Below are positions 1 to 9,114 of a stretch of DNA of 13,559 nt, piece after piece; positions within the stretch are counted from its first letter, which is position 1, and every line of letters starts with the position of its first letter. The DNA comes from Candidatus Thorarchaeota archaeon (GTDB lineage Archaea; Asgardarchaeota; Thorarchaeia; Thorarchaeales; Thorarchaeaceae). A program made the translations under genes and the position numbers. The stretch is taken from assembly GCA_038893995.1 (NCBI GenBank), contig JAWAQK010000059.1:1-13559 (forward strand). Reading direction: 5' to 3'. Under the pieces are notes generated by a model. The model was not told the origin of the DNA. It saw only the letters and a list, made by a program, of their open reading frames with translations, and made no database searches.

Positions 1-280
1 ATCTTGAGAAGAACTGGGACTCTATGTCAATGAGAGCAATCAACCGGCCAATCCACTCGACCAGCAACTCGTAGAGGTCGATGCCTCGAACTATGACATG
101 GGTGCACACTCTGGGCATCACTGACGAGACGTCAAGTATCGTGTCGAATGTGGCAATGGCAGCCATCTCAAACGCACCTGATAGCGTTGGAGCCCAACAC
201 TCAATGACGATATCTGCTGTGTGTTCGTGAATCCTGAAACCTCTATCCAAACCTGACAACCCCGGGTCAAGAAACTCCAT
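1..280 (-). CDS. Archease (tRNA splicing/RtcB ligase cofactor family), N-terminal part, truncated by the left window edge
   Basis: Manual minus-strand translation from ATG at 280: MEFLDPGLSGLDRGFRIHEHTADIVIECWAPTLSGAFEMAAIATFDTILDVSSVMPRVCTHVIVRGIDLYELLVEWIGRLIALIDIESQFFSR. It is open to the edge and shows the archease signature (G-F-x-x-x-x-HTAD, LYELLVEWI). It is not in the supplied ORF track because it has no stop inside the window. Confidence 0.85.
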   Translation of the reverse strand, partial: MEFLDPGLSGLDRGFRIHEHTADIVIECWAPTLSGAFEMAAIATFDTILDVSSVMPRVCTHVIVRGIDLYELLVEWIGRLIALIDIESQFFSR

Positions 281-337: not shown

Positions 338-454
338 GCCGAGGTAGCCAAGTTGGACAACGGCGCCGGTCTTGAGAACCGGTGTGCTCTGCACTCAGGA
401 GTTCAAAGACTACCAACACCTCGTTGGGTCGGACATATCTCCTCCTCGGCGCCA
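338..454 (+). tRNA. tRNA-Ser(UGA) with a 30-nt intron in the T-loop; CCA encoded
   Basis: Acceptor GCCGAGG (338-344) pairs perfectly with CCTCGGC (444-450), followed by G73 (451) and CCA (452-454). D-arm GCCA-AGTTGGACAA-CGGC. Anticodon arm CCGGT-CTTGAGA-ACCGG (anticodon TGA at 373-375). Class II variable arm GTGC-TCT-GCAC (384-394). T-stem AGGAG (397-401) pairs with CTCCT (439-443). Removing 407-436 restores a TTCAAAT T-loop. Confidence 0.9.
407..436 (+). other. tRNA-Ser intron at position 58/59 (58/59 and 59/60 give the same spliced product)
   Basis: A 3-4-3 bulge-helix-bulge can be drawn: outer helix GGA/TCT (398-400/438-440, one G-U), central helix GTTC/GGAC (401-404/431-434, one G-U), bulges AAA (405-407) and ATA (435-437), inner helix GAC..CCAAC/GTTGG-GTC (408-417/423-430) with a TA bulge and loop ACCTC. 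Confidence 0.82.
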
Positions 455-475
455 CAGAACAGTCAGGTGTGTGCA

Positions 476-4213: not shown

Positions 4214-4405
4214 TCCATCATCAATGCATGGGCTCTGCCTTGCTCATGTAATAAGGTAGATGGAATTACACATCGCTCGATAGTCGACCGGTAAGCGTCT
4301 GTACGTGTGAAGCTCATGTGAGTGGTCTTAAGCAGACCGACCTCCTTCACGACACAGTCATACTTATTCGGAGGGACGTCCACGCTTGCATGGAGGCCTG
4401 CTCGC

Positions 4406-5656
4406 ATGGTGGTCTATCTGACTAGCACTATCTGCGGTTACTTTGCTACCGATAAGGATGGTCAAGTCTTGGTATCCGAAGTGGTCTATCCAGACGTGAC
4501 CGACGCGGCAACCGAGTTCGTGAATCTTGGCCGTGGTGGAATGACAGAAGGACTCAGGCGCATTGTAACCAAGATGATAGAGAATGGACACCGTGAGATA
4601 GTTGTCGAGGACCGCATGCTAGCGAGAGCTCTCTCGGAGTTTAGAGATCTGAGCGTGTCAGTCGATGAGCAGTCAAGGGAGATCAAGTGGTTCCGCAGCT
4701 TGCATGACTCCATGATGCTGGAGAGAGGCATCGTATCCTCCGAGGAGGACCTGCGTCGATTCAGACATTCTGTATCGCTGCTTGTTGCCGAAGTGTCCCT
4801 CAGAGAAGCTTGCAGAGAGAGAGATCTGCTCGTAAAGCAGGCAATCAATGCGGTCGATGACTTGAACAAGTCAATAAACATCATTACAATGAGGGCTAAG
4901 GAATGGTATTCGTTCCATAGCCCGTCCGTGAGTATGATCGTTGACGACCCTGAGGTCCTCTCGCAGATAATCACAGGGGAGTACGACCACACAGAACTTG
5001 AGAGCAGGCTTGCCGAACTTGGACACCCAACAACAATCTTTGAATCCTTGAGCAAATCTGAGCTAAACAGGATAGGAGGCGCACTCTCTGAAACTGACAT
5101 TGAGGCAATCAGGTCCCTCGGCAAACTCATAGGAGTTCTCCTGCAGGTAAAGAGAGGACTCGAGCACTACGTAGAGTTGATGATGCGCGAGGTGGCCCCG
5201 AACCTAAGTGCCCTTGTCGAACCCCTGGTCGCCGCCCGACTGATAGACGGCGCAGGGTCTCTGGCCGATCTTGCAAGGCGACCATCCAGTACAGTACAAG
5301 TGCTTGGAGCTGAACGGGCGCTCTTTAGGAGTCTAAGGACAGGGACTGCTCCACCAAAGCATGGACTCATATTTCAACTTCCAGAGGTTCATTCGGCCCC
5401 GCTGTGGCAGAGAGGCAGGATTGCAAGGGCATTCGCAGGGAAGATTGCAATCGCAGCACGAGTGGATGCATACTCAAAGCGGGATGTCAGCGAACAACTC
5501 CGGCAGGACCTAGAGCGAAGACTGATCGAGATCCGAAACCGGTCCAGACCTCGGCTCACTCATGCTACTACTACCAGATCAAGACCGTCTACTGAGAAGG
5601 GCACACGCACAGGGCGCCGGAAGGCACCCAGGAAACGTGGAGGGAGAAACAATTGA
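4406..5656 (+). CDS. nop5: Nop5/Nop56/58-family C/D box sRNP core protein
   Basis: ORF 4322..5656(+). The family-like N-terminus MVVYLTSTICGYFATD starts at ATG 4406. C-terminal Nop domain: APNLSALVEPLVAARLIDGAGSLADLARRPSSTVQVLGAERALFRSLRTGTAPPKHGLIFQLPEVHSAPLWQRGRIARAFAGKIAIAARVDAYSKRD, then a basic tail. GGAGG lies at 4392-4396. Confidence 0.95.
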   Translation: MVVYLTSTICGYFATDKDGQVLVSEVVYPDVTDAATEFVNLGRGGMTEGLRRIVTKMIENGHREIVVEDRMLARALSEFRDLSVSVDEQSREIKWFRSLHDSMMLERGIVSSEEDLRRFRHSVSLLVAEVSLREACRERDLLVKQAINAVDDLNKSINIITMRAKEWYSFHSPSVSMIVDDPEVLSQIITGEYDHTELESRLAELGHPTTIFESLSKSELNRIGGALSETDIEAIRSLGKLIGVLLQVKRGLEHYVELMMREVAPNLSALVEPLVAARLIDGAGSLADLARRPSSTVQVLGAERALFRSLRTGTAPPKHGLIFQLPEVHSAPLWQRGRIARAFAGKIAIAARVDAYSKRDVSEQLRQDLERRLIEIRNRSRPRLTHATTTRSRPSTEKGTRTGRRKAPRKRGGRNN

Positions 5657-8596: not shown

Positions 8597-8703
8597 GGGG
8601 ACGTGGCCTAGCCCGGTAAGGTAGCGGGCTCCAGATCCTATGAGCAGGGGTCATAGAAGGACAAACTCGCAGATCGTGGGTTCAAATCCCACCGTCCCCA
8701 CCA
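8597..8703 (+). tRNA. tRNA-Trp(CCA) with a 30-nt intron at the canonical 37/38 site; CCA encoded
   Basis: GGGGACG (8597-8603) pairs with CGTCCCC (8693-8699), A73 at 8700, CCA at 8701-8703. D-arm GCCT-AGCCCGGTA-AGGT. Anticodon stem GCGGG (8624-8628)/CTCGC (8666-8670), anticodon CCA at 8631-8633. T-arm GTGGG-TTCAAAT-CCCAC. Confidence 0.92.
8635..8664 (+). other. tRNA-Trp intron (37/38)
   Basis: ATCCTATGAGCAGGGGTCATAGAAGGACAA. Bulges AGA (AG^A) and AAA (AA^A) flank a short helix TCC/GGA (with an adjacent C-C), and the inner helix TCCTATGA/TCATAGAA has one mismatch, so this is a slightly relaxed BHB. Confidence 0.85.
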
Positions 8704-8812: not shown

Positions 8813-8822
8813 GTTTAAAAAA
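8813..8822 (+). promoter_or_regulatory. TATA-box-like element TTTAAAAAAC for 5S rRNA
   Basis: Located about 25-34 nt upstream of the 5S rRNA 5' end. Confidence 0.6.
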
Positions 8823-8846
8823 CTCCCGAATTTCACAGGTCTTCGA

Positions 8847-8961
8847 TGGCGGCCATGGGCGCCGGGGATCACCCATACCCATTCCGAACATGGAAGTTAA
8901 GCCCGGTGTCGTCGTGGGACATGTGCGGTGCGCGAGCCCGCGACAGGCCCACGAGCTGCCA
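8847..8961 (+). rRNA. 5S ribosomal RNA (ends approximate)
   Basis: Conserved CCCATTCCGAACATGGAAGTTAAGCCC core, and a terminal helix TGGCGGC (8847-8853)/GCTGCCA (8955-8961). Confidence 0.93.
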
Positions 8962-9114
8962 CATTCCAATTCATTCTTTGACCATTCAAACTTCCGATTG
9001 TCTTTAGGACCCGGTCTCGGGTGCATTGGACCAGCTGAAACGGAGAAACGGATGTATACCATTTCATAAACAGAAACTGTTAAAGCACAACCGTCATTTG
9101 GCACTTTGATACAC

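Follow-up and report, generated by a model that had tools for sequence, protein, structure and literature searches.

Positions 338-454 on the forward strand of the window, by which we mean the whole stretch of 13,559 nucleotides of Thorarchaeota DNA analyzed here, very probably hold a spliced, functional tRNA-Ser(UGA) gene with a 30-nt bulge-helix-bulge (BHB) intron at tRNA position 58/59, inside the T-loop. Judging from sequence comparison, we put the probability of this reading at about 0.9. It is supported by the anatomy of the gene, by the canonical tRNA restored when the insert is removed, and by conservation, covariation and synteny. Transcription of the locus, cleavage and ligation of its transcript, and the identities of the enzymes involved are what we infer.

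Structure of the interrupted gene

The class II gene covers 117 nt in two collinear exons. Its layout is GCCGAGG-TA-GCC-AAGTTGGACAAC-GGC-G-CCGGT-CTTGAGA-ACCGG-T-GTGC-TCT-GCAC-TC-AGGAG-TTCAA-AGACTACCAACACCTCGTTGGGTCGGACAT-AT-CTCCT-CCTCGGC-G-CCA. The acceptor stem (338-344/444-450) is built of seven perfect pairs, GCCGAGG with CCTCGGC, and the T-stem (397-401/439-443) of five, AGGAG with CTCCT. Between their 5' strands lie the D-stem (347-349/362-364), the anticodon stem (366-370/378-382) with the loop CTTGAGA and the anticodon TGA at 373-375, and the variable arm (383-396) with a 4-bp stem (384-387/391-394). The D-loop sequence AAGUUGGACAAC is specific to the tRNA-Ser gene of the window. The discriminator base is G451 (G73), and CCA is encoded at 452-454. 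The 5' exon (338-406) corresponds to tRNA positions 1-58, from the 5' strand of the acceptor stem to T-loop positions 54-58 (TTCAA), while the 3' exon (437-454) supplies T-loop positions 59-60 (AT), the 3' strands of the T-stem and acceptor stem, G451 and CCA.

Everything that a sequence-only reading of the window had described, when it called a class II tRNA-Ser(UGA) with perfect acceptor and T-stem, is present. The features expected of a class II tRNA-Ser are all present (variable arm, anticodon, acceptor, G73 and, once spliced, standard D- and T-arms), and the gene is homologous to at least 123 other tRNA-Ser(UGA) genes. At window position 376 (tRNA position 37) G is present in the window and in one relative, L003 (CTTGAGA); A37 (CTTGAAA) is the base in almost every other Asgard-type orthologue.

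The two strands of the T-stem are 37 nt apart in the window, against the usual 7, which bears out the 30-nt T-loop intron proposed in that reading. The intron, AGACTACCAACACCTCGTTGGGTCGGACAT, occupies 407-436. The BHB motif that had been suggested for the junction was also recovered, with the 3-4-3 geometry, by a motif script that looked for a strict hBHBh' arrangement, in which a 4-bp helix stands between two 3-nt bulges, one on each strand, with further helices on either side. The whole motif lies at 398-440. Its central helix H joins GUUC of the exon (401-404, tRNA positions G53-C56) to GGAC of the intron (431-434). Bulge 1 is 405-407 (AA/A) and bulge 2 is 435-437 (AU/A), where the slash marks the predicted cut between 406 and 407 and between 436 and 437, respectively. 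Helix h (398-400/438-440) has 3 bp and helix h' (408-410/428-430) has 3-4 bp, with an inner intron hairpin (413-417/423-427) beyond h'. Against the motif it may be said that helix h is short (2-3 bp) and that h' is offset from the bulge in 3 of 24 aligned sequences.

The excision rule places each cut behind the second nucleotide of the bulge; it removes exactly 407-436 and leaves the loop TTCAAAT. When ARAGORN is given the sequence minus 407-436 it calls a tRNA-Ser(tga) of 87 nt with the T-loop TTCAAAT, as had been expected for the spliced product; the predicted RNA junction 406/437 reads ...GAGUUCAA/AUCUCC.... As an internal control, the same rule applied to the canonical 37/38 introns of orthologues gave correct 7-nt anticodon loops, with H formed by CUUG (32-35) and CAAG and with the correct junction CTTGAA/AACCAG. 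A strict hBHBh' motif that excises exactly 30 nt arose in 0.52% of 200,000 shuffles of the insert. By its strict 3-4-3 motif, by an excision that restores the tRNA, and by a position other than 37/38, the insert can be classed with the archaeal BHB introns.

Nearest-neighbor folding gives another picture. The minimum free energy fold of the gene retains the T-stem and the intron hairpin and lacks the BHB: the fold with an intact T-stem reaches -42.9 kcal/mol and the BHB conformer -38.4 kcal/mol, so that the latter is 4.5 kcal/mol less stable. In the ensemble the H pairs have a probability below 2%, while those of h' have about 0.5. Thermodynamics gives the BHB no support, and it is the comparative evidence that speaks for the motif.

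Two other classes of interrupted gene were considered and rejected. Self-splicing group I and group II introns depend on a catalytic RNA core that is hundreds of nucleotides long; the insert has 30 nt, and no Rfam intron family was found at 250-550 with E values up to 10. A split or permuted tRNA gene, with halves apart or in reversed order, is excluded, since the two exons stand in normal order on one stretch of 117 nt.

Recognition by tRNA finders

The expectation that tRNA finders would miss the unspliced gene proved correct for both programs used. Whether or not its intron options were used, and even at a lowered threshold, ARAGORN reported only a tRNA-Trp in the window and never the tRNA-Ser gene, and Rfam at the gathering threshold found only the tRNA-Trp and a 5S rRNA in the window. 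A search of 250-550 with the Rfam tRNA model RF00005 (E up to 10) yielded one sub-threshold match of 20 bits, against a gathering threshold of 29. In the alignment of this match the T-arm is deleted and the variable arm serves as acceptor strand, and we reject it as an artefact of the insert.

A covariance model placing the T-arm elsewhere would speak against the T-loop intron. For our model, R1, we used 19 intron-less Asgard orthologues, assigned their cloverleaf by hand, and searched the whole window with filters off. Its best match in the window lies at 342-446 (59.6 bits, E ~1e-12), with the T-stem at 397-401/439-443 and a 31-nt insertion in the T-loop. R1 puts the T-arm nowhere else, so this counter-evidence does not occur. 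tRNAscan-SE 2.0 has dedicated BHB models for non-canonical introns (PMC8450103).

Distribution of the intron among orthologues

How widely is this arrangement shared? The 5' half of the gene was used as a pattern to scan 185,579 species-representative genomes, in which at least 119 stretches matched; together with syntenic loci these gave at least 124 tRNA-Ser(UGA) genes, designated L001 and onward. Among the matches listed, 99 of the 124 genes have a 7-nt T-loop, while the remaining 25 have an insert of 28-30 nt at the same 58/59 site, forming a 'loop' of 35-37 nt. All 25 contain a strict 3-4-3 BHB whose excision yields TTCAAAT or TTCGAAT. Besides the window, there are 24 insert-bearing genes with 23 distinct sequences among the matches listed, and every insert carrier among them that is named to lineage belongs to Thorarchaeota or Promethearchaeota. 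Among these matches two genes come from Heimdallarchaeota and one from Hermodarchaeota; all three lack the insert.

The genes were also sorted by taxonomic label and intron content, leaving out L001 as a duplicate; the counts again apply to the matches listed. Under an Asgard label (57 genes) 13 have the T-loop insert only, 6 have the insert together with a 37/38 intron, 20 have a 37/38 intron only, and 18 have none. For the 16 genes labelled only 'archaeon' the corresponding numbers are 1, 4, 2 and 9. Among the 50 genes with a Euryarchaeota-type label the insert does not occur, either alone or with a 37/38 intron (0 and 0); 13 have a 37/38 intron only and 37 have none. The T-loop intron thus may share a gene with the canonical intron, as it does in L014, L020 and others.

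Intron-less orthologues offer a direct comparison with the predicted product. They carry exactly the predicted spliced junction CAGGAGTTCAAATCTCCT (for example, L061 and L028), and those with the same T-arm (L061, L091, L110 and L028) read ...CAGGAGTTCAAATCTCCTCCTCGGCGCCA, which is the predicted spliced product itself. In the retrieved loci a BHB insert at 58/59 was found only in Ser(UGA) genes, apart from one spurious match in L021. One metagenome-assembled genome (MAG), CSMAG_2458, has two tRNA-Ser(UGA) loci, L034 and L080, which may reflect a genuine duplicate or else a bin of mixed content; one of the two copies has both introns (150 nt) and the other the T-loop intron only (117 nt).

Conservation and covariation of the BHB

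Alignment A1 comprises 24 distinct sequences of T-arm plus intron. The cells of the BHB and hairpin are paired in 98.1% of cases, as compared with 82.7% in shuffles and 22-46% when the partners are slid by 1-3 columns. Six of the 13 BHB and hairpin pairs change on both sides (51 cells), and none of 500 shuffles reached the observed covariation score. Helix H is paired in 100% of the sequences; its exon strand is fixed as GUUC and its intron strand appears only as GAAC, GGAC, GAGC or GAAU. The T-stem is likewise 100% paired across the insert, and two of its pairs covary. Mean pairwise identity is 55% in the intron columns (49% in the hairpin part) against 89% in the flanking exon columns. In this alignment, then, the sequence of the intron drifts while its structure is held.

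These data bear on the alternative explanations. If the gene were a pseudogene, that is, a tRNA-Ser inactivated by an insertion of 30 nt that is never removed, UCA codons would be decoded by another copy. Such a gene would go unrecognized by ARAGORN and Rfam, as the unspliced gene does, and the two tRNA-Ser(UGA) loci of CSMAG_2458 make a second copy possible; yet both of these copies have the T-loop intron. The insert stands at the same site in at least 25 genes with exons 89% identical, the T-stem and acceptor stem are perfect, the BHB and hairpin covary, and the promoter block and synteny described below are conserved. A splicing motif would not outlast decay in species so far apart that their Elp3 proteins are only about 66% identical, and we regard inactivation as very improbable. 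The mature RNA might instead keep the insert, as an additional arm of a tRNA with an expanded T-loop. The hairpin of the insert is stable and conserved, with the h' probability of about 0.5 already given, but the canonical tRNA fold relies on the interaction of T-loop and D-loop, and a T-loop of 37 nt would abolish this contact. The conserved GUUC/GRRY helix with its two 3-nt bulges goes beyond a mere hairpin and constitutes the recognition motif of the splicing endonuclease EndA, and related species manage with a plain 7-nt loop. Retention is hardly credible to us.

A real intron might also be cut at another place, either at 59/60 (408-437) or by way of a relaxed motif on an intact T-stem, which is the thermodynamically favored fold. 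Since nucleotides 407 and 437 are both A, excising 408-437 from the window would produce TTCAAAT as well. The orthologues are more informative here: in 15 insert-bearing genes the intron opens with G or T, and in these only a cut at 58/59 yields TTCAAAT or TTCGAAT, which is the loop of intron-less genes, whereas 59/60 would lead to TTCAAGT. This comparison also settles the site in the window. The 3-4-3 geometry, with H conserved in 100% of sequences, favors 58/59 too, and a different cut seems improbable.

Genomic neighborhood and putative promoter

The tRNA-Ser gene lies between an archease gene and an Elp3 gene. The archease gene (1-250, reverse strand), identified by Pfam PF01951 and placed by its coordinates in the near-identical contig L001, starts at 250, runs off the window and is divergent from the tRNA; its NCBI product name is 'archease [Candidatus Thorarchaeota archaeon]'. 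A gene for a SPOUT RNA methyltransferase (PF02598) comes next after archease. The Elp3 gene, of the radical-SAM/GNAT type, occupies 476-2185 of the reverse strand, is annotated as 520 aa (476-2038) and converges on the 3' end of the tRNA. Gene callers placed no protein gene in the gap between Elp3 and archease. Archease is a cofactor of the RtcB tRNA-splicing ligase, and Elp3 is an enzyme that modifies U34 of tRNA. The interrupted tRNA-Ser, itself a tRNA with U34, sits between two tRNA-processing genes.

The Elp3 (with a 100% match), archease and S30e proteins of the window are NCBI proteins of MAGs named 'Candidatus Thorarchaeota archaeon'. A contig of a second MAG (GCA_038825165.1, locus L001) is 99.92% identical to the window over 12 kb and contains the same tRNA locus. 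The order Elp3 - tRNA-Ser - archease is common to L001, L002 and L004, although the Elp3 proteins of L002 and L004 have only 64-66% identity with that of the window. In L003 another gene follows Elp3, yet the tRNA-Ser is still nearby.

Upstream of the tRNA, at 281-302 of the forward strand, there is a candidate BRE/TATA block, ACAAGAAGCTTAAAAGGCGTTC, in which a BRE-like AGAAGC precedes a TATA-like TTAAAA (290-295). The TTAAAA starts 48 nt upstream (-48) of the tRNA 5' end. A nearly identical block, ACAAGAAGCTTAAAAGGCRTTTCC, is found upstream of the Thorarchaeota orthologues for which upstream sequence was analyzed, with TTAAAA starting at -30 to -32 in many of them and at -38 to -65 in others, the window included. 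Since it stands so close to the tRNA in many genomes, we infer that this block would be the BRE/TATA promoter of the tRNA. In some genomes, the window among them, an extra 20-30 nt separate the block ACAAGAAGCTTAAAAGGCRTTTCCAACGG from the tRNA, and in some of these (L002, L003) the segment looks as though it could form a hairpin. The block ACAAGAAGCTTAAAAGGCRTTTCCAACGG includes the palindrome AAGCTT and is located between the divergent tRNA and archease genes, so it could serve both.

Downstream, a T-run terminator after CCA was found neither in the window (455-475) nor in L002 and L003, its two closest relatives; most other orthologues have TTTTCT-like runs directly after CCA. In the window 21 nt separate the 3' end of the tRNA from the stop codon of Elp3.

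The window contains a second interrupted tRNA gene, so that both of its tRNA genes (Ser and Trp) have introns. This is a tRNA-Trp(CCA) at 8597-8703 of the forward strand with a 30-nt intron at 37/38, detected by Rfam (54.6 bits) and by ARAGORN with the intron option. Its BHB, drawn by hand, has a central helix of 3 pairs plus a C·C mismatch, with h' following a 1x1 mismatch. About 140 nt downstream of the tRNA-Trp lies a 5S rRNA gene (8845-8964, forward strand, Rfam 62.1 bits), with a TTTAAAAAA stretch ahead of it at about 8816-8824. The Nop5 gene (4322-5656, forward strand) is a single ORF of 444 aa in the window, and its counterpart in L001 (6380-7633) is called as two genes of 132 and 282 aa. 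In all, 7 mismatches and one gap distinguish the window from L001, and one of them may lie within Nop5.

Proposed splicing pathway and possible origin of the intron

In the pathway that we propose, the conserved BRE/TATA block, some 45 nt ahead of the gene, would first drive its transcription. In the precursor, G53-U54-U55-C56 would leave the T-arm and pair with GGAC of the intron (431-434), forming the 4-bp helix between two 3-nt bulges. EndA would then cleave after the second nucleotide of each bulge, between 406 and 407 and between 436 and 437, and an RtcB-type ligase with archease as cofactor would join the exons. The T-arm would finally refold with the loop UUCAAAU to give a mature tRNA of 87 nt with its encoded CCA.

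The archease gene is the immediate neighbor of the interrupted tRNA. As for the endonuclease, Asgard archaea including a Thorarchaeota genome are described in PMC5829648 as having an (αβ)2 EndA with a broad-specificity L1 loop, together with non-canonical introns. An Atabeyarchaeia genome is listed with two EndA genes (K01170). The sequence-only reading had held that relaxed or noncanonical introns generally need a special type of endonuclease. The position of the present intron is indeed non-canonical, but its motif is strict and not relaxed, so by the motif alone a broad-specificity enzyme may not be strictly required.

How could such an intron arise, and why would it persist? The following reading is in our view improbable as a whole. 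The 58/59 intron may derive from a T-arm that was partly duplicated. TTCGAA is palindromic, and a second copy of it (many introns end ...GAGTCGAAC) would therefore pair with the exon GUUC and create the central helix of a BHB. Many T-loop introns have the end ...GAGTCGAACA(A/C) (A1 columns 34-46; window 426-437), which is like the 5' half of the T-arm, GAGTTCGAA.

The canonical 37/38 introns of Thorarchaeota tRNA-Ser(UGA) show a resemblance of their own. They start with AAYCRG followed by a hairpin like the variable arm, and so resemble the start of the 3' exon; loci with such exon-like introns include L029, L050, L082, L103, L096 and others. Identity between the 37/38 intron and the start of the 3' exon reaches 19 of 24 positions and in several cases exceeds that of all shuffles. 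Some of the intron hairpins are the very element that serves other species as an exonic variable arm (for example, TTTCTTCGGAAGC). From these sequences, the 37/38 introns look like the outcome of partial tandem exon duplication, then GCCAAGCC. Taken together with the T-loop introns, the exon-like 37/38 introns would speak for duplication as a general way of gaining BHB introns.

Under the same improbable reading the 58/59 intron could be an old feature of Thorarchaeota tRNA-Ser(UGA) that selection has kept, and more than a neutral passenger. If it is maintained, it may act as a gate on T-loop maturation, with T54, Ψ55 and m1A58 having to await splicing. Another possibility is that it hides the segment from the T-loop to the 3' end, a common target of integrases, from these enzymes.

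Comparison with known tRNA introns

The intron of the window is a further example of known archaeal BHB splicing. T-arm BHB introns have already been described, so that it extends a known phenomenon and leaves what is known of the workings of such introns unchanged. According to PMC4090602, T-arm BHB introns of Crenarchaeota and their relatives (Thermoproteales, Caldiarchaeum) occur at positions 53/54, 56/57 and 59/60, and PMC6379350 and PMC3293823 also place BHB motifs in the T-loop. Site 58/59 is not among the T-arm positions named in the review text available, whose lists end with 'etc.'. Like the crenarchaeal T-arm introns, that of the window is short and protein-spliced, has an exon-intron 3-4-3 BHB outside 37/38, restores the cloverleaf on excision and may share a gene with a canonical intron. 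Unlike them, it belongs to an Asgard host (Thorarchaeota) and is an orthologous, long-conserved feature of one tRNA gene.

Asgard archaea are rich in such introns. In three complete Asgard genomes 92-95% of tRNA genes have introns, many of them non-canonical or multiple, as reported in PMC11291895. The earlier description of introns outside 37/38 as known but uncommon sets the expectation too low for an Asgard host, for which they are reported as common (PMC5829648, PMC11291895). The introns described there for Atabeyarchaeia and Freyarchaeia (PMC11291895) and for Thorarchaeota SMTZ1-83 (PMC5829648) agree with ours in superphylum and in intron class, and probably in enzyme type, which is reported as (αβ)2 EndA carrying an L1 loop. 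They are also difficult to annotate, and extra introns were found there by structure drawing. The available text of these two papers contains no mention that we could find of a T-loop intron in tRNA-Ser(UGA) or of its spread in Thorarchaeota.

With the canonical 37/38 BHB intron, represented by the tRNA-Trp(CCA) of the window (8597-8703) and by Ser(UGA) orthologues, the T-loop intron has in common the motif, the cutting rule and a length of about 30 nt. The difference lies in the central helix. In the canonical intron it uses anticodon-loop positions 32-35 and extends the anticodon stem, while in the window it uses G53-C56, so that the T-stem must partly unpair and re-register before cleavage. 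T-arm introns also exist in nucleomorph tRNA genes and in nuclear tRNA genes of Cyanidioschyzon merolae (PMC4090602, PMC3728597). There, too, the T-arm is interrupted and a protein endonuclease removes the insert via BHB-like motifs; in contrast to the present case the hosts and the endonuclease are eukaryotic, some inserts have 3 nt, and there is no evolutionary link.

Two points appear to be new: the 58/59 intron as an orthologous feature of Thorarchaeota tRNA-Ser(UGA), and the occurrence of four intron architectures in one gene. Neither was found in the searched literature, so far as its text was available.

The finding has a value for annotation, as ARAGORN and the Rfam tRNA model miss the structure of this gene. 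The same structure is present in at least 24 further genes labelled Thorarchaeota, Promethearchaeota or only 'archaeon'. As tRNA-Ser(UGA) reads UCA codons, an annotation missing the gene would seem to lack an essential decoder. The gene occurs in four states, with no intron, with the canonical intron alone, with the T-loop intron alone and with both, and these offer a clean natural series in which gains and losses of introns can be followed. Asgard archaea are the closest prokaryotic relatives of eukaryotes, and the emerging picture of their intron-rich tRNA genes now includes, with the present locus, a T-loop intron that is well supported, orthologous and long-lived.
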